32,000 nt of DNA. It comes from Candidatus Saccharimonadota bacterium. Lineage in GTDB: Bacteria > Patescibacteriota > Gracilibacteria > Absconditabacterales > Absconditicoccaceae. Where the stretch lies: positions 810,001 to 842,000 of the forward strand of contig OZ246420.1 of NCBI GenBank assembly GCA_965231145.1, written 5' to 3'. This document shows, in pieces, positions 1 through 32,000 of this stretch (positions are counted from its first letter, which is position 1; each line of letters starts with the position of its first letter). Both the position numbers and the translations under genes were made by a program. The notes under the pieces are model-generated. The model did no database searches and was not told the DNA's origin. It saw only the letters and a list, made by a program, of their open reading frames with translations.

Positions 1-178
1 CTTTCACGCGATCGAAGGGCGTGGTATTGAGAGCGTTGAAAATAAGCGGTGCGGGAGGGAAAATAGTATATTGTTTTTTTTCTTCAAGAAGTTTATTTTT
101 GATCTCACCAAAATAAGCTTGGGAAAACTCCCCTTCCAGCACTTTTTTCCACGATGCTTCTATCTGCACGTCACTCAT
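1..178 (-). CDS. ung: Uracil-DNA glycosylase, N-terminal part (gene runs off the left edge)
   Basis: ATG at 178-176. Translation is MSDVQIEASWKKVLEGEFSQAYFGEIKNKLLEEKKQYTIFPPAPLIFNALNTTPFDRVK, the typical family-1 UDG N-terminus that precedes the VVILGQDPYH motif. Confidence 0.8.
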   Translation of the reverse strand, partial: MSDVQIEASWKKVLEGEFSQAYFGEIKNKLLEEKKQYTIFPPAPLIFNALNTTPFDRVK

Positions 179-192
179 GACCATAAATTAGG

Positions 193-819
193 TTATAAAT
201 TGATTACTTTGAGAATGCGATCAAAAACCTCCTCTACAGTTCACTTTGCATCGATGTTGATCCGCTTATTTCCCCGGATAGCAAGCTTTGATGATCTCCT
301 ATATCACTCTGTCACTTTTTCAAAAAATTCTACTCCCATCTGTTCAAATTTATCACCATCAGCATCAAACGTTCTATCGAGTGCATGTTTCACCTCCGAA
401 TCAAGGTATACTACCTTATCGGGCAACAGATCGCTGATAGCTGCATGGTTAATTGCGAGGACTTTATCAAGTCCAAGACCTCTTGCCCGCCCCTGATACG
501 CCAATGATGAGACAAATGATCTGTCAGCTATTACTATGCCTCCGGCGTCGACCGTTGGTTTAATGAGCGTCTTCAACAGCTGCGCGCGAGCTGCAGCATA
601 CAGATACGCTTCACAGATAGGATCCATAAGCTCATCAAATTGTGTTGCCTGTGCAAGTTTTCTAATTGCTTCTGCGATACCAGTTGATCCTGGTTCACGC
701 ACATGGATGATCTTTTTCTCAGGATATTTCTGCAGCAAATACTCATACAGCCTTGCTGACTGCGTCGATTTTCCTGAACCAACTATTCATTCAAACACAA
801 TGTACATAGACGAACTCAT
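193..819 (-). CDS. tmk: Thymidylate kinase (dTMP kinase)
   Basis: Rebuilt across three TGA codons (787-789, 304-306, 241-243). MSSSMYIVFEG(TGA)IVGSGKSTQSARLYEYL... gives the P-loop, followed by REPGST and a C-terminal ...INIDAKGTVEEVFDRILKVINL. Stop is TAA at 193-195. A second ATG at 807 is an alternative start. Confidence 0.9.
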
Positions 820-843
820 AGTCAATGAATAAAGAATAGCGCC

Positions 844-1437
844 TTATTGTTTTTCTGTTTCATACTTCATCCTTTTCTGGAGATAGCATCTACCACAAAC
901 TGACTGATAGGTAATACGAACATCGCTACCATCGATCTGCACCTGTTCGCCGCTAAAGACTGGGATGCTATCAATGCTTCTTATATTACAAATAGCTTTT
1001 TTGCCACACTCACAGATGGTTTTCATTTCTTCAAGCTCATGCGCAATTTCTAGAAGTCTTGTACTTCCCGGAAAACCTTCCATTTGAAAATCAGTGCGCA
1101 GCCCATAGCAGATGACTGGTATGTTATCTATCGACGCTAAGCGAAAAAGCTGGTCAACTTGTTTCTTTGTGCAAAACTGCGCTTCATCCACAAGTATGCA
1201 ATAGACGAGTGGCTGCTGCGAAACCACTTCTACGAGGTCATCCTCTTCCGAAAATACGACATCCACTTTTCTTTGGATACCAAGTCTTGAAACGAGCATA
1301 TCTTCTCCTTTCGTATCTTTACCTGGTTTCATCACTAAGACCCTCATATTTCTTTCTTCATAATTGTGGGCTACCTGCAAAAGAGCCGTCGATTTTCCAG
1401 CATTCATCGCACTATAACGGAAATACAGCTTCGCCAT
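844..1437 (-). CDS. tdk: Thymidine kinase
   Basis: Intact 197-aa ORF. It has the P-loop SAMNAGKST, VDEAQF, and the zinc-ribbon cysteines CxCG...CGRC. Stop is TAA. AGGAG lies about 11 nt upstream of the ATG. Confidence 0.92.
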   Translation of the reverse strand: MAKLYFRYSAMNAGKSTALLQVAHNYEERNMRVLVMKPGKDTKGEDMLVSRLGIQRKVDVVFSEEDDLVEVVSQQPLVYCILVDEAQFCTKKQVDQLFRLASIDNIPVICYGLRTDFQMEGFPGSTRLLEIAHELEEMKTICECGKKAICNIRSIDSIPVFSGEQVQIDGSDVRITYQSVCGRCYLQKRMKYETEKQ

Positions 1438-1624
1438 TTCTTCTTAACTCCTAAGACGGTAAAAGGATATTACAGCCAGCTTAGAGATCCTGGCTTTTAT
1501 TTCAATTGGAGCTTTATAAAACTATTTCCTACACTTTTTGGCTTATTTCTAAGGCAATTCAAAATATTGACTTCACATGGCGTTCTGTTATAATACTCAT
1601 TCACATTAAAATATATATCTATTT

Positions 1625-2140
1625 ATGAAATCGTTATTTATCATTGCCATCGTTCTTTGTATCACAGGACTCAGTTACACTCCTGCCCACGCACAAATAC
1701 GCTGCAAAGACAAAGGGAAAAAATTAGTCGTCTTTATTCACAAAGACGGTACATCTGACACCCTGTGTCTGCTTGCAAGCGACATCATTACGGACACAAT
1801 AAAGTATTCCCAACGCGAAATAAATATGGGAGAAAACGCATACAACTATAACCCGAGATTCATAAATATGATTCTCGACAGTTCAGATAACGACAACCAT
1901 ATTATCGTATTTTCTAAATACGCTTATGCAAAACAAGACCATAGATCGACGCCTTTCGATATAAGCATGGAACAACAGTCGTTAGCTCATAACACCTGGG
2001 TAGGTTTTGGCTCTTGGCTCAGCATACAAAATGGCAAAGGCTGTTATCACCACTCCGCCGATTCCAGCAATAAGGTATTTGAAATTCATTTTACCGAAAT
2101 ATTTGCAGCCATCCTGGAAAGCCTCAAAGACGAAGTATAA
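1625..2140 (+). CDS. Secreted hypothetical protein (signal peptide MKSLFIIAIVLCITGLSYTPAHAQ)
   Basis: 171-aa ORF with a clear N-terminal signal peptide, a TAA stop, and a terminator immediately after. I recognise no family. Confidence 0.7.
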   Translation: MKSLFIIAIVLCITGLSYTPAHAQIRCKDKGKKLVVFIHKDGTSDTLCLLASDIITDTIKYSQREINMGENAYNYNPRFINMILDSSDNDNHIIVFSKYAYAKQDHRSTPFDISMEQQSLAHNTWVGFGSWLSIQNGKGCYHHSADSSNKVFEIHFTEIFAAILESLKDEV

Positions 2141-2157
2141 AAACTATATACTATGTA

Positions 2158-2186
2158 AGAGCGGGATTATCCTGCTCTTTTTTTTA
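2158..2186 (+). terminator. Rho-independent terminator after the 1625..2140 gene
   Basis: AGAGCGGGA-TTAT-TCCTGCTCT stem with one mismatch, followed by a T8 run. Confidence 0.7.
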
Positions 2187-2191
2187 TAGAT

Positions 2192-4291: not shown

Positions 4292-4864
4292 ATGTGAGTA
4301 AATCTAGCCGAATTGAGAAGTCGATGTGCACAGCGTAATGTACCGCTGATTTCTGAAGCAACTGAAGAATATCTGAGAAAGCTTCTGAGACAATATAAAC
4401 CTCGCCGTGTTCTTGAGATAGGAACAGCTACAGGATATAGCGCTTGTATGATCTCCAATGAAATTGCATCATATGGTGGGATAGTCTATACATGTGAGAT
4501 CTGATACCGAGATTATCTGAGTGCGTGAAACCATTTTCACAAGGCACATGCATATAATGTCGTGTCGTATCACGCAGATTTCTTAGAAACAAATCTGAGC
4601 TCACGATGAATAGAAAAATTTGATATGATACTGATAGACGGAAGGAAAAATCAATACAAGGAATATCTCCTCAAGGTTTCCGACTTCGTGGCTGATGATG
4701 GACTGATTGTCATAGACGACGCCATCAAGTTCGCTCACAAAACATCTTCATTATATGACTTCTTGTCAGAAAAGCAAATCAAATATGAACTCCTCCCCCT
4801 AGATGAAGATGACGGCATCATTGTTATTGACAAGGCTGGAATTCAACTTCTAAATAGCTACTAG
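4292..4864 (+). CDS. Class I SAM-dependent O-methyltransferase (family 3, YrrM/TrmR-like)
   Basis: Two track fragments (4313..4504 and 4625..4864) are in one frame and join across TGA codons at 4295, 4502, 4526 and 4604. SAM motif VLEIGTATGYSA and FDMILIDGRKNQY are present. ATG at 4292, stop TAG. Confidence 0.8.
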
Positions 4865-5066
4865 CGGATAGCAATGAGATTATAACAAAAAAATGCTAAC
4901 ATCTAAAATCGATATGCTATATAGTTCGATGCTCTTTTTGTAAAATACCTATAAGTTCTTTTTCTGTGCTATACTGAGGCCAGCCTTTACGCGGCAACAA
5001 GTTGTTTTGTTGGATATCTCACAGTCAGATTTCGCCTTCTACTACATATGTTTCTTGCGGAGAAAA

Positions 5067-5501
5067 TCAGGTTGTTTCAAAAAATGCTTTTTTTACCACT
5101 TCCATCATATGAAAACTTGTCATAAAATCATTATGTAGTCTCATCATCTCCTGATTTTTTATGTATGTTGTCTGAAATATTTTATAACCATTTACAAGAA
5201 AATGATATAAGATAGGGTCTATATTTACTTGTGTCTGTAAGCTATTTTTACTTAAGAAGTAACTATCACGACCATCTATCATGGCATTGGGATTGTAGAG
5301 CAATCTCCTAGTTTTAGCATCTACTTGAAAGCCTCCTTTATAGGTTGGATCTTTTCATAAAGTAGGAAAACTATGTCATCTCGCTCCTCCGCTCTTCGAA
5401 TGATAATCATTTCACCAATGCGAAGCGATAAGCGTCTCTCCTGTAAATGCTCAAAAGACAGGATTGTAGTCTATTCTATACGATTCTTCGCACTCCTCCA
5501 A
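5067..5501 (-). CDS. Hypothetical protein; start uncertain, same frame as a 38-codon ORF (5520..5636) separated only by TAA
   Basis: The ORF extends upstream of track fragment 5067..5303 through four TGA codons. The first usable start is TTG at 5501. The frame stays open to an in-frame TAA at 5520-5522. Directly above that is ATG(5636)-MREHLSPYILNEKQGIPCHNEQEAAFSALHEKKLTDIT. Confidence 0.5.
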
Positions 5502-5751
5502 TATTTTAATAAGATCATATTATGTGATATCTGTAAGTTTTTTTTCATGTAATGCTGAAAATGCCGCTTCTTGTTCATTGTGACAAGGTATTCACTGTTT
5601 CTCATTCAATATATAAGGACTCAAGTGTTCTCTCATGCAATATAGTATATCGTATCTATAATTCAAATCAATCAGTAAAAAAATCCTGCTCTCGCTGGAT
5701 TCCTTTTTAATTATGCATTCTGAGTTTTGATTTACAAGTTGCGTAATAAAA

Positions 5752-6162
5752 TTACGCTTCCAGTTTTGTCAGATCAATTTTCTCTCCTTCAAGTTCCATC
5801 TTATCGATAGTCTTTGCGATAAATGGATCTACGTAGAGCCAGTATTTCGCTACGGTGAAATCTTCATCATCGAGAGCTTGTACTGATTGTACAAATGCGA
5901 CTGCCTGATTGTTATACTTGAGAAGATAATTGAGCGCACCTCCATTATCAGCTACTACCTTTATCATGACATTGTCTTTGTCGTATTCACCTGGATAGTC
6001 TATGATGAAGGTGGGATTTTTTTCCTTGTCATCCGCATATGTCATATCTTCACCCTTTGTTGCCATAAGATTGATATATTTTTTATCAGTTACTCCAAAT
6101 GAGATATACATAAGGCCTTCAAGAAGGTATCCATCATTAAGTTTTTGAATATTTACTGCCAT
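5752..6162 (-). CDS. Hypothetical protein (136 aa, acidic)
   Basis: Intact ORF with ATG start and TAA stop, well-spaced from its neighbours. No family recognised with confidence. Confidence 0.65.
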   Translation of the reverse strand: MAVNIQKLNDGYLLEGLMYISFGVTDKKYINLMATKGEDMTYADDKEKNPTFIIDYPGEYDKDNVMIKVVADNGGALNYLLKYNNQAVAFVQSVQALDDEDFTVAKYWLYVDPFIAKTIDKMELEGEKIDLTKLEA

Positions 6163-6805: not shown

Positions 6806-6825
6806 GAGAAAGCTATAAAATAAAA

Positions 6826-7269: not shown

Positions 7270-7383
7270 GTACCATATGTAATGCGGATAAAGCTTTGAT
7301 TTACCATAGCGAAAAAGGCAGGCATTACAAGGAAAATGTTTTTCTGATAACAAAAAATCGTCCCCGAAAGGACAATTTTTTCA

Positions 7384-7463
7384 TGCTGGAGAGGAGACTC
7401 GAACTCCCAAGCCGAAGCATACGCACCTCAAGCGTACGTGTATACCAATTCCACCACCCCAGC
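7384..7463 (-). tRNA. tRNA-Leu (anticodon GAG), type II with long variable arm, no encoded CCA
   Basis: Folded by hand. Acceptor GCTGGGG/CTCCAGC with one G:U. D arm GTG-GAATTGGTATA-CAC. Anticodon arm TACGC-TTGAGGT-GCGTA (U33, G37). 11-nt variable arm. T arm GGGAG-TTCGAGT-CTCCT. Discriminator A. Confidence 0.85.
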
Positions 7464-7708
7464 ATAAACAACAAGTGTGATATAGAGTTTCCTCCTTCGG
7501 CGTATGGGTTACTATAAGGACTTACTGGCTAATTTCAACATGATTATTGTAGTTATTAGAAGCAATTATTTTTTATACTCCCGCCGGAGGGGCGTTACTT
7601 TTTAGCATATCCCTAAAAACCCCGTATTTACTACGGGGCAAAAAGGTCTATGGCCGACCTGCCTACAGGAGACGCAGGAAAAATCAGCGGGTTAAAATAA
7701 TATCATAC

Positions 7709-7753: not shown

Positions 7754-8872
7754 CTATTTCGTCTTTTTAGCAGGAGCTGCTTTTGTCGTCTTGAGCTGGT
7801 AGATACCCTTATCAACTCTTTCAAACATATCTTTATACTTCTGAAGGTTAAGAAGGACGGTGTTTGGGCTTACCATCTTTTCCTTAAGAAGTTCTTTTGA
7901 GATCTCTTTTACGCTCATAGCTCTTTCATTTTTCTTGAGGATTCTGTAGATGATGTCTTTTACGACTCCGCCTTCGATACCCCACTCTCTGAGTCCATAG
8001 ATACCAAGTCCCATATTTACAAATGTCTGATTGTTTTTTACAAGTTCATTATGAACTGTTGTTACCTTAATAGCTTTAGCTGGGAACCACTCTATGATCT
8101 TTGAAGGAATTTCCTGGAAGTGCATAGGCTTATTCACTTTTCTGAGTACATACATGATTTTCAACTTAATAGTCTTTGGATGTACATCGTGGAAGTCCTG
8201 GAGCCCAAGCTTTCCATCGAACATCTTCGCTCCTCTAATAACATTGAAGAAGTTAGTGTAGAAAAGCGTATTTGTAAGATAATGTATACTTGGATTTTTT
8301 ACCTGAAACTCAGCTTTAAGTTTTTCAATAAACTCATAAATATCTTCTGACTCTTTTCTCTTTTCAAAGTAGTTATTTACGAAAAGCGTCATCTTAGTAA
8401 GCAAGTCTTCGAAAAGCGGATCCTTATAGAAAGCTTTGTAGAGAAGTTTATTTCTTTTGAGATAGTTGATATCGAAATCTGAAACAAGAATAAGTTTAAG
8501 TTCCTGGGGTGTAAATTTGAAAATACCTTTGTTCACCATCTTCTTGATCATATCTTCTTCTGACAGGAGACCTCCAGATACATCAAGGATCTTCTTTGCT
8601 TCTTCAAGCACCTTAACGTATTTATCATTGCCTACGATGAGTCTTCTAAATCTCATGAGGGCCTGAGTTTCTATCTGTCTTACACGCTCTCTTGTCATGT
8701 TATAGTCTTGCCCGATTCTCTGGAGAGGAATTTCTTTACTCGTGAGGAGACCAAACTTCTTGCAAAGCACAAGTTGTTCTTTTGGCTTGCAGTACTGTAG
8801 AATATCTTTGATGTTAGTACTTTCGATATCTACTTTAATTTTTTTGTCATCCATCTTTATGTTGAAATTCAT
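7754..8872 (-). CDS. Sigma-70 region-4 HTH protein with C-terminal HARE-HTH-like domains
   Basis: Intact 372-aa ORF. The N-terminal LTSKEIPLQRIGQDYNMTRERVRQIETQALMRFRR is a sigma-70 region 4.2 signature. The C-terminal half has two HARE-HTH-like segments (PMHFQEI...GLGIYGLREWG and MSVKEISKELL...FERVDKGIYQLK). No region 2 is visible, so it is probably not a canonical sigma factor. Confidence 0.75.
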   Translation of the reverse strand: MNFNIKMDDKKIKVDIESTNIKDILQYCKPKEQLVLCKKFGLLTSKEIPLQRIGQDYNMTRERVRQIETQALMRFRRLIVGNDKYVKVLEEAKKILDVSGGLLSEEDMIKKMVNKGIFKFTPQELKLILVSDFDINYLKRNKLLYKAFYKDPLFEDLLTKMTLFVNNYFEKRKESEDIYEFIEKLKAEFQVKNPSIHYLTNTLFYTNFFNVIRGAKMFDGKLGLQDFHDVHPKTIKLKIMYVLRKVNKPMHFQEIPSKIIEWFPAKAIKVTTVHNELVKNNQTFVNMGLGIYGLREWGIEGGVVKDIIYRILKKNERAMSVKEISKELLKEKMVSPNTVLLNLQKYKDMFERVDKGIYQLKTTKAAPAKKTK

Positions 8873-9356: not shown

Positions 9357-10451
9357 TTATCCTCAAATTTTAAATGTGATGATATCTCACTCCTGTACGA
9401 TATACTCTTTTCACTCTAAACGGAGATATCATTTTTCTCTCGACTGTCATCGTCCTCCCGCCTCAATAAATTTATCATATGACACAACTTCTGCTTTGAT
9501 AAACTTTTTTTCAAAGTCCGTATGGATGGCTGCAGCTGCCTGAGGCGCGCGAGATCACTTTTCGATCGTCCATGCGCGCGTCTCCTTTTCTCCTGTCGTA
9601 AAGTAGTACATAAGACCAAGCGTATCAAACGCAACTGCGATCATATCATCGAGCGTCGGAACATCTTTATCCGGATGCATATCTGCGATAAACTCTTTTC
9701 TTTCTTCCGGAGAAAATCCTAACATCTCTGATTCTATTTTTGCACAGACTATCGCCACCGGGCGATGAAGCTTCGCTTCAAATTCTTTTTTGATAGCTTC
9801 TGCATTTGCGAGATCGTCCTGCGATACATTGATAGCATAGACAAATGGTTTGAAGGTAAGAAGGTTATAACTTCTGAGAAGATCGAGAGCTTCACCCACA
9901 AATTCATCTTTTACTTCGTATGCAAGCTTTCCCTGCATGAGTGCATCGTAAATAGTTTTCAAAACAGGATAGAGCTTCCCTGCTTCCTTATCTCCTGTTC
10001 TTGCTCTCTTTTCAAGCGAAGGAAGTTTTGGTTCGATCTGTTCTATATCAGACATGATAAGTTCAGTATTGATGATCTCAACATCACGAAACGGATCAAC
10101 TGTACCTTCGACGTGCATCACGTCTCCATCGCCAAAGTGACGAAGTACCTGTACGATCGCATCTACCTCACGAATATGTGCAAGAAATTTATTTCCGAGT
10201 CACTCCCCTTTTGACGCTCACTTTACAAGCCCTGCAATATCTACGAACTTAATAGCCGCATAGACTTTTTTCTGTGTATTGGAAATTTCTGAAAGCTTAT
10301 CAATTCTTTCATCAACAACATCTACGATACCAACATTTGGTTCGATCGTACAAAATGGAAAATTTGCTGCATCTGCCGCATATGTTTTTGTGAGTGCATT
10401 GAACAAGGTAGATTTTCCTACATTGGGCAATCATACAATACCTATTTTCAT
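9357..10451 (-). CDS. ychF: Ribosome-binding ATPase YchF (Obg-family GTPase)
   Basis: Two track fragments plus a C-terminal tail join in one frame across TGA codons at 10431, 10218, 10200, 9555 and four more in the tail. MKIGIVG(TGA)[19 protein letters not shown](TGA)ASKGEG(TGA)LGNKFL, and C-terminal [31 protein letters not shown]...YLRLEGKEYIVQEGDIITFKIGG. Stop is TAA at 9357. Confidence 0.95.
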
Positions 10452-11365: not shown

Positions 11366-13261
11366 CTATCTTTCAAAATTTAAGTGATAGGTTCTTCCAT
11401 CGGGAGTTCCATTATCTATTTTAATAGGATGGTCAGCAGCATAAGCTTTATATTGTTGGAGAAGCTGAGCGGGAGAGATATTACGACCACGGGCACCCGC
11501 TTGAATACGAAGGTATGGCTCAGCGATAGTCATATATGCTTTATATGCATGCATATGCGGATCTATTTCTGTCGGGGTAAATGTGAGTATCGTATCTACT
11601 GATAATGGTCTACCTCCAAGTTTTGCTCTCACTACATTTGTTGTAGTTCACGCGTTTGCAGCAATCGACTCTATAGTATCACCCGGAACTACTACATAGC
11701 GCATAGGATATATATTTGGCAGATTCCATAACGTCTCAAGATACGTTTGTATGTCACGAGTAAGATGTTCACGGATAAATGTCTGAGCTTCAGCAGCCTT
11801 AGCATGAATACCCTTTGGCAAGTGTTCTGGATAAGGGATACTTACTAAGGGACGTCCCATAGTTTCTGGTCTTGCAGAAGGAATGTCTATAATACGAGTA
11901 GATGTTTCAATAGTCGTTTGTGGTCTTACTTCTACGCTCGATCTTGGGGTATATGTATCTTCCGATCTTTGTGGCGGTGCCACATCTGGAAGAAGTGGTC
12001 CTACATAACTACGGATATATGCTTGCAACAGTTGACCACCCTTCAAAGTAGGATCAAGCGTGATGCGCTGATCATAACCATCAACTGCTTTTTGTGCGTC
12101 TGCTACTTTTTGTTCCCATATAGCTTTTTGTTTCGTCCATATAGCTACCTTTTCAGGGCGAGCCGCTCAACGAACTTCAGCTTGATCACCTACGGCTGGT
12201 TTCAATAATTTTCCATTTGTTGCTTCATCGAGGCTTTTTTCCACACGTGCAAGCTCTGCTTTTGCAGCATTGAGAGCTTTCTTATCTCCGTCAAAAGTAT
12301 GAAGACCCTTATCTTCTTCACGCCTTGCTTCGATCAAAAGTGTATTGATAGCGTTAGGATCTTCTTTCTGAATTAAGCTTAACAAAGATTGTGCTCTTGC
12401 CATCTCATTTCTCTTATAGTCATTTGTCCCTGATGACGCTTTTGCTTCATCGAGGATACTGTTCGCTTCCTTAAGAAACTTCTTCGCAACATATGCATAG
12501 ACAGGATTTTCAGCCTGTCCCGCTTTCATATCATATTTTGCAGCTTGCGCAGCAGCTCCCCTATAAAATCTCATAGCCTGGAGCCAGTCTCACTGAGCAA
12601 ACATAGCGTCACCAGCTTTTTGAAGCTTATCTGATGGCTCATCAAGCATGATCTCCTGCTCGTTTGCGGCTTCTTTCTTTTGCTTTTCATCGTTTTGCCA
12701 TTCTGGAGAAAGATATCTTGTGAGTCTTTCAAGGGTCTTCTGGTCAAGTTTTCCTGTTACTGGAAGTCATTTTTCCTGTTGAAAAGATTTGACCATGTTT
12801 TCAGTCTCACCTCCTACACGCATGACACCGTCTACTTTCGTAGTTTTTCCTGCTCTATTGAGCGCAATCTGTACAGGCAAGACGATAGAAGCATCATTCA
12901 TGTTCAATGTTGCCATTTGTCTGCCACCCTGCATCTCAGCAATCACAGTATCCATCCTTCTGTTCATCTGTTCGAGGGTGATCTTTCCTGTGATCGCATT
13001 ACCGTATTCAAGAGAAAGGTTGTGTATTTTTTCATTGTGCTGATCAATAATGTTGCGACGTAGATCCGTCAGTTCGCGTCTCGTATTTCTTGTCACTTCC
13101 GCCTGCTCTCTCGCCATCTTTGTTTCCATATCAGAAAATTTTGCCTCCAACTCAGCTCTATCTGCACGATCGGGAATATATGCATCCAAAATCTGTTGGT
13201 TGGCTCTCCTATTGGTGATATCGACTCTGATATCTTTGTTTTCCGGACCTTTATAACCCAT
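11366..13261 (-). CDS. 631-aa protein with a PG_binding_1-like domain and a C-terminal LysM-like domain
   Basis: Four track fragments (12767..13297, 12167..12574, 11648..12046, 11366..11632) share one frame and join across TGA with no TAA or TAG. I checked this codon by codon. LPVQIALNRAGKTTKVDGVMRVGGETENMVKSFQQEKG(TGA)LPVTGKLDQKTLERL fits the peptidoglycan-binding repeat. YVVVPGDTIESIAANAG is LysM-like. ATG at 13261, with TAG upstream at 13298. Stop is TAG at 11366. No signal peptide is evident. Confidence 0.8.
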
Positions 13262-16068: not shown

Positions 16069-16455
16069 ATGTTTAAAGTAAGGGCATTCCGTCATCTCTC
16101 ATTTTTAAAGCTGTGTATTGGTGCGACCCTTCTTGGAGTCGCATTTTTCACTATCAATGTGTATGAGGACCCAGGAATAGGCATAAGCCTCTTACTCTTT
16201 TGACTCTTCTTCCTTTCATGGGGAGCGAGCTTTTTTCTTTTTATGGCGTTACAAAAGTTTTTCCATCAACTTCCTTCTGAACCCCAGAAGAAAGAAAAAG
16301 AAAGTTATAAACTCTCCCTCTTTTTCTGACTCTATATTCTTATCAATATCATCCTGCTCATCCTGGAAAAACGAACGAAATGAAGTGGATTTTTATTACT
16401 TATCGTCTTTGTTATAGGACAGGTTATTTTATTTATCCAGCCACGCGATGCATAA
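16069..16455 (+). CDS. Small membrane protein (128 aa), absent from the standard-code ORF track
   Basis: ATG at 16069, TAA at 16453. Three in-frame TGA codons split it into sub-threshold pieces under the standard code. The table-25 translation has four hydrophobic helices (e.g. LKLCIGATLLGVAFFTI, ISLLLFGLFFLSWGASFFLFMAL). Confidence 0.6.
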
Positions 16456-16765
16456 TATCCAAGAGATGGAAGAGACCATCATAAGCCAGCTACAATGAGT
16501 GTATGACCCGGAATTTCCGCTTATTGATATCTATACAATGGGGCTGATCTATAAGATTACGATCGATACGGAAGAACATAATATCCATCTTCTTATGACA
16601 CTCACCTCTCCAAGCTGTCCTGCTGGAGATATCATCGAACAGATGATTCGCAACGCGATAATTAGTGTATACCCTGAGTGGATGCTGGAAATAGAAATCA
16701 CATTTGAACCACCACGAACCTATCATATGATGAAAGATGACGATTTGAAAAGAATGTTTGAATAG
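16448..16765 (+). CDS. DUF59/MIP18-family Fe-S cluster assembly protein (SufT/PaaD-like)
   Basis: LQG(TGA)VYDPEFPLIDIYTMGLIYKITID...HLLMTLTSPSCPAGDII is the DUF59 signature. ATG at 16448 overlaps the previous stop by 8 nt; ATG at 16466 is the alternative. Stop is TAG. Confidence 0.82.
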
Positions 16766-18581: not shown

Positions 18582-19181
18582 ATGAGTAAAGCAATCAGGA
18601 AAGTGCCAAGAATAATGATAGTGATGATATCAGCATTATTTTTGACATGTACCAATCCTTCGTTTACCGGCGCCAGTTCATCAAACGTTATCGTGAGTCT
18701 TCCTATCTCAGCAGGAACGGTGACTATATCAGCACCTGCTTCATTCGGATTTTCATCTATAAGTGTGGCGTTTGATGCTCAGCTTATTACCAATGACTTT
18801 ACGGGAACAGATAATCGTTTTATCATAAGCGACCTTAAAGGACATGATTCTGGATATACCACGACTCTCCAATTAACTGGAGACCTCGTATCTACAGGAG
18901 GGAGTTCTATCTCTTCAGGAAACGTCTATTTTAGATCTCTCGGTCCTACAGGATTTCTTTTGAGTGGTACTGCTAACCCTAGAGTTATCATAGACTCAGC
19001 AGCTACAGGCGGATACCAGCCTCTTAACAATACAAGAAATTTTATTTATAGAGATGAAGCACTCAATACAGGTGTACTCAGTGCATACTACCAAAATATC
19101 TCTATGCAAATATCGGTACCAGCATCTCAAGCAGCAGGTAACTATGTAGGAACTTTGGTCTATACACTTATCGAAAACTAA
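18582..19181 (+). CDS. Small secreted WxL-domain-like surface protein
   Basis: Intact 199-aa ORF with a signal peptide. The C-terminus ...AAGNYVGTLVYTLIEN* resembles the WxL-domain terminal motif (Y.G.L.W.L). The last ~115 aa align with the C-terminus of the giant protein at 20516..20860. Confidence 0.7.
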   Translation: MSKAIRKVPRIMIVMISALFLTCTNPSFTGASSSNVIVSLPISAGTVTISAPASFGFSSISVAFDAQLITNDFTGTDNRFIISDLKGHDSGYTTTLQLTGDLVSTGGSSISSGNVYFRSLGPTGFLLSGTANPRVIIDSAATGGYQPLNNTRNFIYRDEALNTGVLSAYYQNISMQISVPASQAAGNYVGTLVYTLIEN

Positions 19182-20515: not shown

Positions 20516-23500
20516 TTAGTTCTCAATCAGTGTATATACCAGTGTTCACTGATACTGACCAATTGGCTGCTCGGCAGGAAGCGCCACTTGCATCCAGATA
20601 TATGCTCCATAAACACCCATCACACTACTATTTGCAGCGGTATCACGAAGAATAAAGTTGGTTGCATGATCAAGAGGTTGATAACTCAGTGCAGCAGTAT
20701 CTATTTCTACTCTTGGATTTGCCGATCATGCGATGGTATCGACCTCGGTAGCACTTGACTTGAAGTAGACATTTGAAGCAGAGATAGTACTCGATCCAGA
20801 AGTGAGATTTCCATCTAACTGTAGTGTCGTTGTATATCACGCATCAGCTCATACTCCGTCTGCAACCTTAAAGTATTTCGTTTCATCATTGCTAAAGTTT
20901 TGTTCAAATGTTTGTACATTGAAGGCAGGCCTCCAGAGCCCAGTGAATAAGAGCGATGCTGGCGCTGCCATCGAAAGAGTAGTTGGAAGGATATCTATAG
21001 TAAATACCCCCGTAAGTGTATGTCCTGCACTATCCATCGTTTGAATACATACTCTTGCTGACGTTTCTATTGCATACTGGAAGTAATAATTTGTCAGTAG
21101 TTCATCGTCAGAAATTGTAAACTTATCATTGTCCAATGTTCACGCACATGTCGTATCAAACGTATACGTAAATGAACTGTCTTCAGCGTCAGTAGTAGTA
21201 AATGTTCCGACTGAGGCTCCTGTTGTAAGCTTTTCATTCATCGTCAAAGGAGTTAACGCAAGATCAGTAGGTGGTGTGTTATTTCCTTGGTATGCAAATG
21301 TCATATATAAGTCATCCTGAGCTGGTATGACAAACTGCCATGTGTCACCAACGAGAGTTCCTGTGTGATTTTGTGTCATAGAAGACATCAGCATATCTCC
21401 CCCCGTGCGTACAGCCATATACAATGTACTTCCTGTCAATGGAGCTATACTTCCTGAATCGATAGTAATAGTAATGAAATCGATATCGTTATTTCTTTCC
21501 TGGAAGTACCATGTACGTTCTATTCTCTTATATCATGTCGTAATATTATCAGTAACCCAGTTACCTGTGGACTCACCATCATTTGCCCATACAAGCAACG
21601 CATTGTTTGCAAAGCTACCACCTGTAAATTCTACAATGATATCGCTTCTACTATTTTCTGATCTTGATTTTTGCTGTAAGAGGGATGAACTATCATGACG
21701 GCCGATACCAGCGATGTCACGATTATATGCTCATCCACTTGCCGCACTCCATGCAATAATATCTCACGTTAATATATAATCTACTGGCGCTACCGTCTGA
21801 TCAATCGTGATACCATATTTCAACGCAAGATATGAGTTCATCATATTCATTTCTGTATCTGAGAGTCTGCGTTCAAACGTGATGATCTCCGCGATATCAC
21901 CACTAAATGCTCCTCTTGCTGTTGTACAGTTCGAATTTCCAATAAGCAACCCTGCTCCTGTCTGACTTCACATATTAAGAGCTCATCTCCAAGCCGTTCC
22001 ACCAGTATTACCAGAACCCTGAAGTCCAAGCGTCTGTCCAAATCCTGTTCCGTAGTTCCACGAAGCAAGTGTTGCTGCATTATTGTTCACTGATACTGTA
22101 GATAACACTCTTTGCCCCGAGAGTAATGTCATCAGACGTCATCCACTCAACATCAGTCACCTATCACACAGTGTCGGATTGACATCAGTTGTATTACCAA
22201 CTACTGTGAGCACTCATGTATTATAACTATTACGGAATACTGTGAACTGTGTTGCATCCTGTCCATTCATCTGTTTTGCCATAAACAAATAATCTCACGA
22301 CAAGAAACGCACAACAGGATTAAAGTTCATTGCACCAGTGATATATATCGGTATAAGCGACTGATTATTTTGTACTCCGCTCACTCCGTTGTACACAGTC
22401 TGACTCAACCATCATGATACTCATGCTCATGCTGCAGAGAGCACAATACCTGTATCTGCTCTCAACCATGTTGAACATCCTCAAAATCATCCACATACTG
22501 AAGGTGCTAAACCTATACGCGCAAAACGCTGTTTACTTACTGACCAAGGCGATGAGATAGATCCAAAACTCGTAAACGCTCCTCCAATATCTACTGATCG
22601 ACCATCAGAAATCATAGCATATACTCCAGATTGAGCATAGACATCGAAGGTCGTGTCTACCTTTCCGCCTGAACTTAAGCGCGCAAAATTCCATCTTGCA
22701 ACGCCTTGTACCGATGTGAACACTCCTCACACAAGTATAGATCCATCTGTTTGATCAATCAATATGGTTTTTACGACACCATTGATATTTGGATCAAATG
22801 TCGTATCTAGCAATCCTGTGGATGAGACACGGGCAATACGGTTTCTCACTGCTCCTCATACTGTCGTAAATGCTCATCCCATAACAATCGATCCATCTGA
22901 CTGCACAGCAATAGCTTCAACACCATTGTTTGCATTTGCTCCAGTAAATGTTGGATCTAGCAATCCTGTGGATGTTACACGCGCGATACTCGTTCTGATT
23001 TGTCAACCTACTGTAGTAAATCTTCCTCCTACTAATATATTTCCATCTGGCTGCAACGCAAGTCCACTCACAGAACCGGTAGAATTGAAAAGTCCGGTAA
23101 AAGCAGTATCTAACTCTCCTGTCGATGTCAGACGAGCAATTCCTCTCAGGGCAACACCATTTACACTTGAGAACGATCATCCTGCAATAATTTTATCTCA
23201 CTGTTCTAAGAGTGCACTCACATTTGCATTCATAAATAAACCAGTAAATTCCGGATCAAGCTGACCAGTTGCCGTGAGACGAGCGATATAATTTCTCGAA
23301 ATTACCGTACCCGACATACGATCAAATTCTCATCACACTATAAATCCTCAGTTGCTCTGTGCTATAACAGCGTTTACCTGTGCATTTGGATATGGATGAA
23401 AATCCTGGTCTACGAGCCCTGTTGCAGTAAGACGAGCAAGGTTGTATCTTACAGAAGCAACTATCTGAACATATGATCCTCCTATAACTATCCCCCCTTT

Positions 23501-26500: not shown

Positions 26501-29500
26501 AAAAGTAATGACAGTGTTATCTGTCGGATTAAATGAAAACTTCCACATATCATCATCAAGCGTTCACGTATACACTTCTACGTCTGATCATGTAAGTAAG
26601 CCTCCGCCTGATGCAACAAACATGATAAGCTTCCCTGTTCCAAACGTTGGGATAGCGCCAGAGTAATATGACAATTCTATATTTCCAACATCTCCTTGTT
26701 TTTCCTGAAAATGCCATACACGCGCTATACTTAAGTAGCCCGACACAGCAAGACCCGTCACAAGTGATCATGTTACTCACCCCTGATGAGCCCAAACAAG
26801 TCCCTGATTATTTCAAAATCCTCCCGTCGAATAGATTGAAATTTCTCCAGAGTTATTTGTAGATTTGGAACGATTTTGATAAAGTCCCATAACATCACTA
26901 CGAGCAATACCAGCTATATCAAAACTATAGATACCACCACTCGCGGCGCTCCATAAGGTAATAGTAGTATTTCCTGATCTTACCACATAATCAGTAGGAA
27001 CTGTCTGATCAAGTGCAATACCATATTTTAATCCAAGATAACTTCATACTACTAACTCCTCTCCTGTTGTAAGGGCGCGTGAAAAACTCATAATCTCAGC
27101 TATATCACCACTATATGAAGCTCCGGAAAGACACCCAATAGGAGCTCTTCCTATTTGGAGATTCACTTCTGCGACTTGAGTTGGTCTTTGTGTTGTACCA
27201 AATCCATCTGCTTTTCACTGTACAGAGAGTGTCTGTATTCTTCAACTACCATATTTCCGTCAAAGTATTTTTGGAATAGAATCATTGATAATACCAGTAG
27301 AAAATCTACGTTCTGTTCCTAGATACGTAGTAAATTTACCTCCACTCATCATAAAAGATCTATCGCATGATATCGATGTCAATGGGACTCAAACGGATGT
27401 AACAGTCAATGTTCCACTCGCTGCACGACTACGCATAACGACATATTGAGTCCGGTCCAAGTCAGTAAAATTTATTGGCATAACAAATGCAGATCCTGAA
27501 CCATCAAAACTTATTGATGGATTATAATTCATACCTCCTGTAATAAACTGTGGTTGCCATGATCCTGTTGGCTGTCCCGCTACCCCATCCTGTCATGCTT
27601 GCGTTGTCCACCCTGACACACCATTTCCCCCACCAAACTCAATACCAGCATCTGCTTTTAACCATAATGCACATCATGTTAACCCCAGACAAGTTGATGG
27701 TAAAATTCCAACACGCGCAAAACGAGTTTTAGAAACTCAATCCACAACAGTAAAGGTACCTCAAAGGAAAACTGCGTTTTGTAGAGAATCTACAGTAAGA
27801 GCCGTAATCGTTGCATTAAAAAGAGGCACAAATGTTGTATCAAGAGTCCCATCAGGAAAAAATATAACGACACGTCATACATTTTGACTATTTGCTATAT
27901 TAAATGCTCCTGCAACCATGATTCTTCCATCATTGAGAACCTTAATAGCATTTACCGCTCCATTTACCGTACCAGAGAAAGTTGTATCTAACAAACCCGT
28001 AGATGTAGTACGAGCAAGAAAACTTCTCGCTCCTCATACCACATTGGTCAAGTTTCCTCCTATAATAATTTTTCCATCTGACTGTACGTCTATAGCAAGT
28101 ACTCCACTCGAATTCCCTGTAAAACTTCTATCAATATAACCGGTTGCATCAACACGAACTATACCTGTCATAGGAACTCATGATACGGTTGTGAATATTC
28201 CTCCAATCAATGTTTTCCCATCCGATTGTATTTTAATAGCATTTACCGAGTTATTCAAATTTCATGTAAAAGTGGAATCCAGAAATCCAGAAGAAGTAAT
28301 ACGTCATACACGATTTCTAGTCTGACCATTTATCGTCGTAAATGTCCCACCTATGATCATATTTCCATCCGACTGGATATCGATTGCATTGATGATATTA
28401 TTTGTGTTTCCCGTAAATTGTCAGCCCGTTAAAAGAAGTCACGTTGCTGTTACTTTTGCAATACGAAGTATAGCCATATTTGCACCTCCTGTAGTGAATG
28501 ACCCTGCAATAACGAGACCATCATCACTAGTACGAACCATAGCATTGACACTATTGTTCATATTTGGATCAAAGATCGTATCTACGCTACCGGTAGCTGT
28601 AATACGTGCTATACGATTTCTTGCTAGTCCACTTGCTGAAGTAAAGGTACCCCCAACAATTATTCCACCATCCGGCTCAACAACCATAGTAGATATGGTA
28701 TTGTTAAATGCCGGATTGAAAGCAATGCTGATCGTACCAACGGTAAATTCTGATGCACCACACGTATAAAATACCGCCTGATGATCTTTCACCACGACAA
28801 TTACATCTCATGAAAAGTCTGCATTACCATTTTCATCACAGCTTGTTTCTGCACTAGCAGAAAGTCACGACATATTAAATCATGTATCTCCATGATGTTT
28901 CACCTGTAATTGTACTACTTCGCCATCTGCAAGTTCAGGCAGAGAGATTGTCATCTGTACGGGCTTTGTAAAAACGAGATGCTGATCTGCAAATCAAAAC
29001 GTATATACTTTTTCTATCTTTTCTGATTCATCCAATCCTTCTACATCCTTCACTGGATGTTCCTGGATAAGTATTTCTTCACTTTCAAGTGGTGCCTGAC
29101 CCTCCATAGGATCAATCTCAGGAACAATGGTTTCTGCTACTATACTCTCTGTTGAATTCTCAAGAGAGCTGATAAGTGAGCTCTCAGGGATAAACTGCTC
29201 GGTACTAATTTCTGTGTTTTGCTCACCAGAAACTGTCTCATTTGCTGTCACCACTTCCTCAACAACAGGAGCTTCTCCTATTACTTTTTCTTCTTCTGTT
29301 ACAGGAGCAAATATTTTTGTATCTTCAGGAATAACTATCGTCACTCCTGCATCCTCACCTGTCACTATCGTTCTTTCTGCAAATTGAATCTCTCTTATTT
29401 TCAAGTCAGTATCTTTCTTAAATTTCGCGCTTACGGCTGTTTCATCGATCATCAGCTCACCCTCCTGTAACCAGATCATATCTTTTGGCAAAAATGGTTC

Positions 29501-29968
29501 TGTTACAATTTTTTCTATATCTTCAATAACGGGAAGGATATGTGGGACTCCGCTTGCAATTATATTTTGCTCAGCAATAGTCTCTTCCTGTACAATCACG
29601 CTCTGTTCTCCTGCAATCTCATCTTGGTCGTTTCCAGAACTAATAATTTCTCCTGAAAACACATTATCTCATCATCCTATCTCATCAGCACTTGTTTCTA
29701 CTATTTCTACTCACTCTTCTATCATAACGTCTTCTCCTTCTCACTCACTCTGTTCATCTACTTGTACAGAGTCTATTTCACCCTCACTCACCACTGGCGT
29801 TACCGTTTCTTCCTGCACCACGGGTGCAACCTCTTCGTCGGCAGATGCAATCCGGTGTGTCTGACCAAATGAAAACACAAAAAGACAAATCCAGATGGCT
29901 GGCTTTCTCAAGTATGCAAATGGCTTTGGTGCTTTCTTTTGGATCGCAATATTCTTCACAACGAACAT
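20516..29968 (-). CDS. Giant (3,150 aa) modular cell-surface protein: signal/TM, acidic region, 3x[beta-propeller delta-60/DUF5122-type repeats, LamG, cadherin-like], C-terminal WxL-like domain
   Basis: All 13 minus-strand track fragments from 20849 to 29968 share one frame. I read every in-frame triplet in all gaps between them and found only TGA, with no TAA or TAG, until TAA at 20516-20518. ATG at 29968 gives MFVVKNIAIQKKAPKPFAYLRKPAIWICLFVFSFG (signal/anchor). Repeats such as GGAFTTVGGVTRNNIARVTSTGLLDPDF fit the propeller type. The LamG hallmark is AFSGDIAEIITFERRLSDTEMNMMNSYLALKYGITIDQ. The cadherin-like motif is FTY.FDTTCAG.LDN.KFTI.G..LLTNYYFQ. The tail ends ...GQYQGTLVYTLIEN*. Confidence 0.88.
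20850..28800 (-). repeat. Three tandem intragenic modules of about 2.6 kb inside the giant gene
   Basis: Landmarks recur at offsets of about 2598-2604 nt. The FTY.FDT motif starts at about 21160, 23761 and 26359. The LamG ends are at 21764 and 24368. The PS.C..F/L..C..WL.AD.G junctions are at 22487, 25091 and about 27690. The two C-terminal copies are near-identical at the DNA level in the LamG block. For example, 22441-22496 equals 25045-25100 over 56 nt, and 21764-21950 versus 24368-24555 differ only at scattered positions. Confidence 0.85.
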
Positions 29969-30034
29969 GTTTCAGTAGCCGAATCAGAGGTAAATTGGAT
30001 ATATCTTAGTATATCTCCTGTCCTCTTTACTGAC

Positions 30035-30058
30035 AAAAAAAGGCTCCCCTCTGGGAGC
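30035..30058 (-). terminator. Rho-independent terminator between the Nudix/NrtR gene and the giant gene
   Basis: On the minus strand: GCTCCC-AGAG-GGGAGC followed by T7. Confidence 0.8.
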
Positions 30059-30145
30059 AATCGGCCGCAAAAAATATCGTTTTTTTGCTATTAATGATAT
30101 AATGTTTGACTTTATGCTCTTTTTGTATGATATATTAGCGATGAT

Positions 30146-30814
30146 TTATAATATTTGCTGCACTTCAAGCTCTTTATTGATGAACTCATAAAGCGAAGCG
30201 GGTCTATGGGTAACCCCCACCTCTGTTTTGTCTGTTTGTCTGATCAAATGTAGACTTTGTATTTTCTTTCTAAAATTCCTCACATCTAGGCTTTGTCCAA
30301 GGATGACCTCATAGACATTTTGCAGTTGCTTCAGTGAAAAATACTTTGGCAGAAAGTACTGTGCAGCATTTGTAGATTCAAGTTTTGATCTAAGTCTTTG
30401 ATAAGCATATCTGATGATTTCCAGATGATCAAATGCAAGAGACGGAAGCTCTTTGATGGAAAAATACTGCGACTTTGTAGCATCGCTTCCTGCTGTCGTT
30501 TTACTATGTATCTCATGACAGATAGCCATGTATGCTGTTGTGATCACTCTACCTCTGGGATCTCTATGAGGATTTGAAAATGTATAAAGTTGTTCCAGAT
30601 AGACGTTTGTTACTCATGCTTCTTCACGAAGTCTTCTTCTCGCTGCTTTTTCCAGCGACTCATCTTCGAGCACAAACCCTCATGGCAGAGCCCGATAGCC
30701 TTTATATGGAGCTCCTCCTCTTTCGATAAGAAGCAGCTGCAGCGTATTATCTGTAATCGTAAAGATCACATTATCCGTTGCCACTAAGATAGACTGGATA
30801 ATTTTGTCTCCCAT
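30146..30814 (-). CDS. nrtR: Nudix hydrolase fused to an NrtR-type winged-helix domain (NrtR-like regulator)
   Basis: Track fragment 30146..30547 extends upstream through three TGA codons to ATG at 30814. The Nudix box is LPG(TGA)GFVLEDESLEKAARRRLREEAG(TGA)V. The C-terminal YFLPKYFSLKQLQNVYEVILGQSLDVRNFRKKIQSLHLIRQT...THRPASLYEF is the NrtR wHTH signature. Stop is TAA. Confidence 0.8.
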
Positions 30815-30988
30815 GAGGTATAATATACGATTTAAAAAGACCTTGATATTGTTTTGTTTACAATATCTAATCTCATATAAGATACAAGACTTATCTCATA
30901 CTTATTGTATATATCACATTAAGAGCTTGAAAGCTTATTTTATCCGCATAGAGATAGGCATGCTTTTATCTTGATTACCACTTATACG

Positions 30989-31552
30989 ATGAACGGAAAT
31001 GAAGCACAGTTTAAAGAAATGATGTTAGATAAAGTTTTGTTTGGCGGACTATTGGCAACACACGATGAAGATATGACCGCATGAAAAAGACTCGAGATAC
31101 TCAACGGGGTAAAAGAAGATCTCTGTGATGCACTCACCGCCTTTACTCCCGATCTTCCGCATCAGTTTAGCTCTCAAGTAGAATCCATCGTAGGTAACAT
31201 AAGAGATCAGATAGAGATGATTTGGGATGACGACGAGTTCATGGGATTTATGGAACTCTATAAGATCAAGCTTGACGGCATCAATGCGATGATGGACCAA
31301 GGTCACAAAGAGTCGGGAGATATATGATCTGAAGAACAAGATGAGAAAGACAACTTTGATGAGCACACGAATATCAGAGCGAAGATGCTTAACTTCGAAG
31401 TAAACTTTACAAAGATATATGAAAAGATGAAAGAACGCGGCCTGGAAAGCATGAGTATGAACGGTCTCAAAATGTGGATAGGTATGTTCAAAAAATCAAA
31501 TGCTGAAAGAGTTGAATGGATGAAAAGATTTTCAGACGACAAAAGTGAATAG
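30989..31552 (+). CDS. Hypothetical acidic protein (187 aa)
   Basis: ATG at 30989 to TAG at 31550 with two in-frame TGA codons, so it is absent from the track. It is preferred over the antisense track ORFs 31049..31366 and 31303..31542, whose translations are low-complexity hydrophobic. Confidence 0.55.
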
Positions 31553-31576
31553 TATTTTTACTCTTTATCAAGGTAA

Positions 31577-31600
31577 CGACGACGACGACGACGACGACGA
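31577..31600. repeat. (CGA)8 trinucleotide microsatellite abutting a start codon
   Basis: cgacgacgacgacgacgacgacga is eight perfect units. The final A is the A of the ATG at 31600. Confidence 0.95.
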
Positions 31601-32000
31601 TGATTACTACTCTCAGAACATTTACACACCAAGAAGATCCATATGGTGTTCAGACAAGCTTGGAAAAATTTCTTAAAGAGAAAAATACGGCTGCTTTGGT
31701 AGAAGTTCTGATGGACCCCTATGAGATAGGTACACACGGGTCGACCACGAAGATGATCATGATGTCAGACTATGCAAGATGTACTCCCGAAGTACAGCAA
31801 GAATTACTGGAGACATTGAACTGATTCGATCTTGCATCATTGGAAACAACAGAAAAGGTAAGAGAGATGGTTTCATTTACTTATTTAGCCCTCTCACAAG
31901 ACAGGATGTGTAAAAAGATTAAGCTGATCGTACAAGTCCGAGATAAACGAGTAGATGATTTTCGTGCTGGAAAATTCAGTTCACTTCCACTGAGCGCACA
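31600..32000 (+). CDS. Hypothetical protein, N-terminal part (runs off the right edge)
   Basis: ATG at 31600. Track fragment 31600..31824 continues through TGA at 31822 to the window end (…LLETLNG(TGA)FDLASLETTEKVREMV…). No family recognised. Confidence 0.55.

Follow-up and report, generated by a model that had tools for sequence, protein, structure and literature searches.

The reading of UGA as glycine was described in 2013 for SR1 and Gracilibacteria (Campbell et al. 2013 and Rinke et al. 2013, as cited in PMC8629427 and in the gTranslate preprint). For Absconditabacteria, CGA and CGG have been predicted with Codetta to be read as tryptophan, together with UGA as glycine (Shulgina and Eddy 2021, eLife, PMC8629427). 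This additional reassignment is taken as fact for Absconditabacterales in a 2026 paper (PMC13092985); according to PMC8629427, only experiments can establish it. Here, we analyzed a window of 32,000 nucleotides (contig OZ246420.1 of assembly GCA_965231145.1, positions 810,001 to 842,000), in which an original prediction made from the DNA letters had read TGA as glycine under translation table 25. Our sequence comparisons confirmed UGA as a sense codon read as glycine, with UAA and UAG as the sole terminators, and indicated that CGA and CGG very probably encode tryptophan in the same organism, arginine very probably being left to AGA, AGG, CGU, and CGC. Both reassignments are already known for the clade, that of CGA and CGG as a computational prediction.

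In table 25, arginine is still the meaning of CGA and CGG, and to our knowledge no NCBI translation table includes the change of these two codons. The window shares with table 25 (the SR1/Gracilibacteria code) the glycine reading of UGA, UAA and UAG as the only stops, and UGG as tryptophan, and the relatives of its RNase J gene belong to SR1/Absconditabacterales and BD1-5. It differs in that its CGA and CGG codons behave as tryptophan, so that 20 codons would be translated wrongly with table 25, two of them at invariant tryptophan positions of motifs. In table 4, used by Mycoplasmatales, Entomoplasmatales, Hodgkinia, Zinderia, Nasuia, and others, UGA has likewise been captured as a sense codon in small genomes of low-to-moderate G+C content, and loss of release factor 2 (RF2) is expected; however, UGA is tryptophan there and glycine in the window, which belongs to another phylum. 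The code predicted for Absconditabacteria (PMC8629427) agrees with the window in all three reassignments, in the rarity of CGA and CGG, in the use of mainly AGA and CGU for arginine, and in the tRNA(CCG) of a relative, which has G73 and no A20. The approaches differ, with per-codon alignment here and a genome-wide Pfam column count there, and the window contains no decoding tRNA. In Anaerococcus and Onthovivens (Bacillota; PMC8629427, PMC13092985), a CGN arginine codon has also moved to tryptophan, via a tRNA(CCG) whose anticodon differs by one base from that of tRNA-Trp(CCA), but CGA stays arginine and UGA stays a stop there, whereas the window has both CGA and CGG reassigned and, in addition, a recoded UGA.

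UGA as a glycine codon

The working gene set comprised 24 protein genes and one tRNA gene, which cover 85.6% of the window (G+C content, 39.4%) and contain 9,114 sense codons. TGA occurs in frame 138 times, spread over 15 of the 24 genes, and neither TAA nor TAG occurs in frame at all; 17 genes terminate with TAA and seven with TAG. That all rebuilt genes stop at TAA or TAG, as the original prediction had stated, is true but is a consequence of how the frames were built. When TGA was no longer counted as a stop, open frames of 100 amino acids (aa) or more increased in total length from 7,300 to 22,477 aa, and the longest open frame grew from 641 to 3,209 codons. In the off-frames (+1 and +2) of the same 24 genes, TAA and TAG together appear at a rate of 3.9% per codon. 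At this rate, about 122 of them are expected in the 3,150-codon gene for a giant surface-type protein and none was observed (ln P ~ -125), yet this gene has 82 TGAs. The absence of in-frame TAA and TAG from this gene is far beyond chance.

These counts bear on the possibility that the locus uses the standard code and has decayed or been mis-assembled, the TGAs being real stops in pseudogenes or sequencing errors. Such an origin would be in keeping with the fragmentation of most genes under table 11, but decay is excluded because it would bring in all three stops and not TGA alone, and the lack of TAA and TAG beside 138 TGAs refutes decay and mis-assembly alike. The TGAs also lie at functional glycine motifs, and in the two closest relatives, the metagenome-assembled genomes (MAGs) L001 and L002 (~80% nucleotide identity), the window TGA faces TGA in 13 of 37 cases and GGN in another 13. 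Moreover, identical sequence was independently assembled from three sequencing runs, the Logan assemblies of ERR4405439, ERR4405440, and ERR4405441 holding contigs with exact matches to portions of the window. Decay or mis-assembly of the locus is thus exceedingly improbable.

For comparison with solved structures from standard-code organisms, TGA was masked as X in the queries to avoid alignment bias. The five TGAs cited in the original prediction (three in ychF and one each in tmk and the Nudix gene; Table 1) are all confirmed as in-frame codons of the minus strand, and the peptides around them are precisely those quoted. In YchF, seven of the eight aligned TGAs correspond to glycine in all four structures shown (H. 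influenzae, E. coli, T. thermophilus, and human), the eighth lies in a variable column (N, Q, A, N), and none corresponds to tryptophan. Two of the three TGAs of Tmk (in the P-loop and in 'EGY') are glycine in the S. aureus structures, with the third variable and none tryptophan, and in an alignment of 118 homologues all three columns are mostly glycine (G 104, 97, and 102). For the peptidoglycan-binding protein (11366..13261), weak PDB matches (E > 0.01) place glycine opposite two TGAs, one of which is at the consensus glycine of a TPR repeat; the TGA columns of the O-methyltransferase are variable (D/N/A, Q/V, and others) and uninformative. Reading TGA as glycine also rebuilt genes as had been claimed: Tmk spans the full Pfam model (1-185/185), YchF can be aligned over its whole length with solved structures of the family, the O-methyltransferase has a family-3 match, the Nudix protein also has the NrtR winged-helix domain, and the 3,150-aa frame is open. 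The name given to the SLH protein held less well, as its Pfam match is weak (E = 5e-4, under the cut-off).

The repeats of the giant protein allowed a comparison within the window. Paralogue pairs were obtained by segment-wise search, since a whole-protein self-BLAST gave the identity match only. Among 348 non-TGA partners of TGA, 180 were glycine and one was tryptophan; alanine, serine, and asparagine came next, the same profile as for GGN. All four TGAs of the C-terminal domain face GGN glycine codons in a TGA-free paralogue (18582-19181). In addition, 51 related loci were retrieved from public contigs with an RNase J query (RNase J with flanks of up to 10 kb, ~800 kb in all), and 1,245 of their ~1,660 TGAs fall on window glycine and two on window tryptophan. 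The RNase J orthologues contain 0-40 TGAs each, ~85% of them on window glycine. Pooled counts from the relatives gave S, L, and I, which came from three variable O-methyltransferase positions multiplied by 48 loci and were gone when the analysis was done per position. A Codetta-style likelihood test, which covered all codons that occurred, gave each window position one vote, and took substitution probabilities from BLOSUM62, recovered the standard meaning of every sense codon except for a near-tie at TCG, and assigned TGA to glycine (CGA is taken up below). In the window, UGA makes up ~18% of the glycine-family codons. The comparison of columns at in-frame TGAs across families, which the original prediction had named as the way to tell glycine from tryptophan, therefore gave enrichment of glycine and not of tryptophan; the conserved columns of YchF, Tmk, and Nudix homologues, the paralogues, and the 51 related loci agree.

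Translation table 4, the code of Mycoplasmatales and several insect endosymbionts with UGA as tryptophan, would equally account for UGA being clearly a sense codon, and some public proteins of relatives show W at these positions, which is potentially misleading. However, no aligned window TGA faces tryptophan in standard-code homologues, and the paralogue and relative counts given above leave next to no place for it. At the three Tmk glycine columns, the W entries (13, 17, and 6 among the 118 homologues) come from relatives reading, for example, AYQWWARW; they sit in otherwise glycine columns (104/118) and are code-4 mistranslations in public databases. The lineage is, moreover, Patescibacteria and not Mycoplasmatota. 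Code 4 was rejected because the alignment columns put glycine, not tryptophan, at TGA, and we hold it to be highly improbable.

Selenocysteine insertion resembles the situation in the window in having in-frame UGA within real genes. It concerns single cysteine-like catalytic sites and requires a SECIS element. This candidate was rejected, as the 138 UGAs of the window are spread over 15 of 24 genes at glycine columns and no selenoprotein family was found among the Pfam matches (SECIS elements were not searched for).

Opposite several window TGAs, relatives have L, K, or S; a single base change separates TGA from TTA and from TCA. The alignments suggest that many TGA glycine codons may have arisen at substitution-tolerant sites.

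CGA and CGG as probable tryptophan codons

The 24 genes contain 12 CGA and eight CGG codons (13 and 9 per 10,000 codons) beside 62 TGG, so that these 20 codons would represent ~24% of the tryptophan family. The standard arginine codons number 179 (AGA), 104 (CGT), 36 (CGC), and 29 (AGG). Two of the 20 codons stand at tryptophan positions that are invariant in solved homologues, in the Nudix and DUF59 proteins, and five more face tryptophan or TGG (Table 1). Four further codons fall in aromatic or hydrophobic columns (F/L/M and E/F/Y in Tmk; L/F/I and S/Y/F in the O-methyltransferase), and none of the 20 lies on a conserved arginine or lysine column. As a control, 134 window positions with AGA, AGG, CGT, or CGC were examined; 93 are in columns with an arginine or lysine majority and none in a column with a tryptophan majority.

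The related loci gave the same picture. Their CGA codons fall on window tyrosine (29), phenylalanine (25), and TGG (19), and their CGG codons on tyrosine (7) and TGG (7), in neither case ever on arginine, while their AGA, AGG, CGT, and CGC codons fall overwhelmingly on window arginine. Opposite window TGG, in turn, paralogues have TGG and relatives have TGG, CGA, or CGG; in comparisons with L001 and L002, the facing codon is CGA or CGG in eight of 20. For instance, the invariant tryptophan of YchF (RAWT) is encoded by TGG in the window and by CGA in these two genomes. At the TGG of aa 108 in the 5752..6162 protein, relatives have TGG (14), CGA (8), or CGG (4), and the two TGG codons of the 7754..8872 protein face TGG or CGA. 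In the likelihood test, CGA gave tryptophan first and arginine 16th of 20, based on four positions only. The statement of the original prediction that TGG is used separately for tryptophan is thus right about TGG but incomplete, since CGA and CGG also behave as tryptophan. Likewise, its assignment to table 25 of the Gracilibacteria/Absconditabacteria type fits in the type of code and in UGA as glycine, but the table omits the tryptophan reading of CGA and CGG.

Several observations weigh against the two reassignments as read here. The window TGA columns are less conserved than those of GGN, with a glycine majority at 15 of 29 and 157 of 204 columns, respectively. The case for CGA and CGG consists of 20 codons, ~14 of them with an informative comparison and seven on tryptophan columns. 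The CGA at 17320-17322 faces a standard arginine codon in an internal paralogue, that at 4322-4324 faces CGT in L002, that at 4508-4510 faces proline, and the CGG at 27452-27454 faces alanine. The window G+C content of 39.4%, which was calculated from 32 kb instead of a whole genome, slightly exceeds the range of 0.26-0.38 given for the four clades with reassigned CGA or CGG (PMC8629427). Furthermore, ARAGORN found no tRNA with anticodon UCA, UCG, or CCG in the 32-kb window, where tRNA-Leu(GAG) is the only tRNA, and the 51 related loci yielded no UCA tRNA, no UCG tRNA, and one CCG tRNA.

The small number of codons and the two CGAs that face arginine codons would suit plain table 25, in which UGA is glycine, CGA and CGG are still arginine, and the occurrences in tryptophan columns are chance substitutions; several CGA and CGG columns are also variable or non-aromatic (P, A, S). 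Chance substitution, however, does not sit well with seven codons facing tryptophan or TGG, among them those at the two invariant positions (3/3 and 4/4 solved homologues), or with the complete avoidance of conserved arginine and lysine columns by codons whose standard counterparts occupy them in the control. Nor do the relatives' CGA and CGG codons, never found on window arginine, or the low rank of arginine in the likelihood test favor it. Plain table 25 is therefore quite unlikely compared with the tryptophan reading.

Decoding tRNAs and release factor

Following published work on the clade, a tRNA with the anticodon UCA and with glycine identity elements, for which G1:C72, C2:G71, G3:C70, and U73 have been given (PMC8629427), would decode UGA, and RF2 would have been lost, so that UGA would not be read as a stop. 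Loss of RF2 is reported for UGA-reassigned bacterial lineages, this clade included (gTranslate preprint). CGA and CGG may be read by tRNA(UCG) and tRNA(CCG) that are derived from, or mimic, tRNA-Trp and would be charged by tryptophanyl-tRNA synthetase; the corresponding identity criteria are G73, no A20, and A/G1:U72 (PMC8629427). According to the literature, a tRNA(GCG) would serve CGU and CGC. General Pfam scans gave no prfB among the genes of the window, which covers 32 kb of the genome, and the matching Logan contigs (3.5-14 kb, extending ~3.4 kb past the window start) had no tRNA or release factor in the added DNA.

The one tRNA(CCG) among the relatives is in L036, which is another organism (RNase J identity, 65%). 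In an Rfam covariance-model alignment with flanking bases, it has A1:U72, G73, and U20 and forms a cloverleaf, which its minimum-free-energy fold does not. Its anticodon arm, CCGGU-CUCCGAC-GCCGG, closely resembles that of E. coli tRNA-Trp. These features point to a tRNA(CCG) that may accept tryptophan and read CGG. Since the L036 tRNA agrees with the published tryptophan criteria, it supports the mechanism for the clade and not for the window organism. ARAGORN labels this tRNA as tRNA-Arg(CCG) at 343-413, and it is better read as 416-343 on the minus strand.

Lineage and chromosomal context

The RNase J of the window is 90-91% identical to those of L001 and L002, labelled 'Patescibacteria group bacterium' and 'bacterium', respectively. 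With genomes of SR1, Absconditabacterales, and Gracilibacteria, among them Vampirococcus lugosii and the complete chromosome RAAC1_SR1_1, the identity is 55-70%. The genes surrounding RNase J follow one order in the window, L001, and L002, and the nearest sequences carry Absconditabacterales or SR1 labels. In a neighbour-joining tree of RNase J, a single gene without support values, the window, L001, L002, and L003 are nested among Absconditabacterales/SR1, a placement that we take as indicative. The window is thus chromosomal DNA of an uncultured, UGA-recoded member of Patescibacteria, from the clade that comprises SR1/Absconditabacterales and BD1-5 (GTDB class JAEDAM01) and on which the definition of table 25 is based.

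Stop-codon recoding is known in some phages. The window could accordingly belong to a recoded phage or mobile element with its own suppressor tRNA instead of a cellular genome with a changed code, and the giant repeat protein could be taken for a phage tail or fibre-like protein. The housekeeping genes present (tmk, tdk, RNase J, ychF, yqeY, and tRNA-Leu) do not suit such an element, and the gene order is common to chromosomal contigs of relatives, including one of 937 kb. RNase J with a nearby tRNA-Leu(GAG) also occurs on the complete SR1 chromosome CP006913, and the window has no phage-type Pfam matches and no suppressor tRNA. As for a decayed locus, the likelihood of a recoded phage is vanishingly small. 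Taken together, a chromosome of this clade in which UGA would encode glycine, CGA and CGG would encode tryptophan, and only UAA and UAG would terminate is strongly favored as the joint explanation of the data.

The spacing between tRNA-Leu(GAG) and RNase J is similar in many relatives (L001, L002, L004, L012, and others), and the tRNA gene adjoins the yqeY region of L001 and L002. Over 121 bases, its identity to L001 is 99%, compared with 70-83% for the surrounding genes. In addition, many third-party MAGs titled 'uncultured Candidatus Peribacteria bacterium' (L008, L012-L014, L016, L022, L027, and others) have RNase J genes with numerous in-frame TGAs at glycine positions, for example 40 in L027, and group with Absconditabacterales/SR1 in the RNase J tree. 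Judging from these sequences, the 'Peribacteria' labels of those MAGs, and the translation tables derived from the labels, look unreliable.

Uneven use of the reassigned codons

Reassigned codons are distributed unevenly over the genes. None of the 50 glycine-family codons of RNase J is TGA (P ~4e-5 at the window-wide share of 18%), its glycines being almost only GGA and GGT, and the protein has no tryptophan whatsoever, by any of the three codons. The tdk gene (844-1437) and the sigma-like gene (7754-8872) are also free of TGA, CGA, and CGG, and in other window genes TGA accounts for 20-40% of the glycine-family codons. Wobble of tRNA-Gly(UCA) onto UGG has been noted as a risk (PMC8629427) and is a candidate decoding error here. 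It is conceivable, but on balance doubtful, that reassigned codons are decoded at a cost or with some ambiguity in the genus-level lineage of the window, L001, and L002. Ordinary codon bias in a highly expressed gene is a simpler reading of the RNase J pattern.

Gene content of the window

The protein genes, the tRNA gene, and the codons discussed above are compiled in Table 1. The nearest solved match of the O-methyltransferase is a tRNA 5-hydroxyuridine methyltransferase. The DUF59 gene was absent from the gene list of the original prediction and overlaps the 3' end of the preceding gene (16069..16455) by eight bases. The last ~155 aa of the giant protein are 46% identical (E = 3e-39) to the entire mature part of the 18582-19181 protein; both end in TLVYTLIEN, and the shared domain has no Pfam match.

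Table 1. Genes of the window and codons with informative comparisons
Feature	Position	Strand	Evidence and reassigned codons
tmk, thymidylate kinase, 208 aa	193..819	-	PF02223 1-185/185; 3 TGA, 3 CGG
tdk, thymidine kinase, 197 aa	844..1437	-	PF00265; 0 TGA
Hypothetical secreted protein, 171 aa	1625..2140	+	Open frame, no Pfam match; 0 TGA
RNase J, 640 aa	2271..4193	-	Pfam RNase_J domains; no TGA, CGA, CGG, or TGG
Family-3 O-methyltransferase, 190 aa	4292..4864	+	PF01596; PDB 8k1f, 5zw3; 4 TGA, 3 CGA
Hypothetical open frame, ~200 aa, putative start	4917..5519	-	Orthologue in L001; 7 TGA, 1 CGA
Hypothetical protein, 136 aa	5752..6162	-	Conserved in 29 loci; 0 TGA
Membrane protein, 174 aa	6281..6805	-	Weak TrbC/VirB2-like Pfam match (E = 0.008, under cut-off); conserved in 33 loci; 2 TGA
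YqeY-like protein, 147 aa	6826..7269	-	PF09424
tRNA-Leu(GAG), sole tRNA of window	7383..7464	-	ARAGORN
Sigma-70 region 4 / HARE-HTH protein, 372 aa	7754..8872	-	Pfam; 0 TGA
ychF, 364 aa	9357..10451	-	Pfam; full-length alignment to 1jal, 8kie, 2dby, 2ohf; 9 TGA, 1 CGA
Hypothetical protein, 224 aa	10577..11251	-	Open frame, no Pfam match; 6 TGA, 1 CGA
PG_binding_1 / LysM protein, 631 aa	11366..13261	-	Pfam; 4 TGA
Pro/Lys-rich hypothetical protein, 186 aa	13497..14057	-	Open frame; 0 TGA
Putative lipoprotein, 175 aa	14658..15185	+	Open frame; orthologue in L002; 0 TGA
Membrane protein, 256 aa	15224..15994	+	Open frame; orthologue in L002; 1 TGA
Small membrane protein, 128 aa	16069..16455	+	3 TGA, 1 CGA
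DUF59 / FeS_assembly_P protein, 105 aa	16448..16765	+	PF01883; PDB 2cu6, 1uwd, 3lno, 5ird; 1 TGA, 1 CGA
Secreted protein, 450 aa	16792..18144	+	Weak SLH Pfam match (E = 5e-4, under cut-off); internal paralogy; 8 TGA, 2 CGA, 1 CGG
Secreted protein, 199 aa	18582..19181	+	Paralogue of C-terminal domain of giant protein; 0 TGA
Membrane-anchored hypothetical protein, 402 aa	19216..20424	-	Open frame; 402-aa call in Logan contig L055; 4 TGA, 1 CGA
Giant surface-type protein, 3,150 aa	20516..29968	-	PF17164; DUF5122 beta-propeller repeats, long internal repeats; 82 TGA, 3 CGG, 1 CGA
NrtR-type Nudix regulator, 222 aa	30146..30814	-	Pfam NUDIX and NrtR_WHD; PDB 5bs6, 3gz5, 2fml; 2 TGA, 1 CGG
Hypothetical protein, 187 aa	30989..31552	+	Open frame, no Pfam match; 2 TGA
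TGA, YchF G1 motif GIV-G-LPNVGKS	10431..10433	-	Gly in all four solved homologues shown
Two TGAs, YchF GLVK-G-ASKGE-G-LGNKFL	10218-10220, 10200-10202	-	Gly in all four solved homologues shown
TGA, Tmk P-loop FE-G-xxGSGKST	787..789	-	Gly in S. aureus Tmk structures; 118-homologue column G 104, W 13
TGA, Nudix LP-G-GF motif	30680..30682	-	Gly in 3/3 solved homologues
TGA, Nudix-box Gly (REEA-G-V)	30614..30616	-	G, A, G in three solved homologues
CGG, Trp of Nudix W-x-LPGG	30692..30694	-	Trp in 3/3 solved homologues, despite R in query
CGA, invariant Trp of DUF59 'PPW' motif	16715..16717	+	Trp in 4/4 solved homologues; codon masked as X
CGG, Tmk aromatic, mostly Trp column	262..264	-	W 65, F 36, R 13, Y 3 among 118 homologues
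CGG, giant protein aa 904	27257..27259	-	TGG (Trp) in both paralogous copies
CGA, giant protein aa 2457	22598..22600	-	TGG in one repeat (aa 1588, best match by eye); other repeats G, D, others
CGA, YchF aa 334	9450..9452	-	TGG in three relatives including L002, CGA in four; 2dby (T. thermophilus) has Trp, the other three structures shown have Glu
CGA, small membrane protein	16372..16374	+	TGG in one relative

Consequences for annotation

Table 11 shreds the locus, table 4 puts tryptophan at 138 glycine sites, and table 25 puts arginine at 20 probable tryptophan sites. The first of these effects, foreseen in the original prediction, can be seen in public Logan calls on identical DNA (L052 and L054), which give a YchF fragment of 70 aa and a Tmk fragment of 144 aa; L052 is 100% identical to the window over 7.6 kb. 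The gene at 16069-16455, which a table-11 annotation had been expected to miss, is indeed without any call in the Logan annotation, and in the 30989-31552 gene the longest stretch free of TGA is 80 aa. In sister runs of the same sample series, calls at the same locus are shredded in L054 and L056 and full-length in L055 (445, 402, and 415 aa), indicating that the table chosen by the caller varies from contig to contig.

Public proteins of the clade contain three kinds of error, namely, table-11 fragments, code-4 W at glycine columns (e.g., P0001, AYQWWARW), and R at a tryptophan column. The last of these probably stems from CGA or CGG. The two closest public genomes, L001 and L002, are at risk of default table-11 annotation because their labels are so general.

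The value of the window is therefore mainly practical and lies in correct annotation. It also supplies motif-anchored codons at which metaproteomics could directly confirm CGA and CGG as tryptophan. In addition, if selection against error-prone reading of the reassigned codons should prove true, the lineage would offer a natural setting in which to measure what a captured stop codon costs in fitness.

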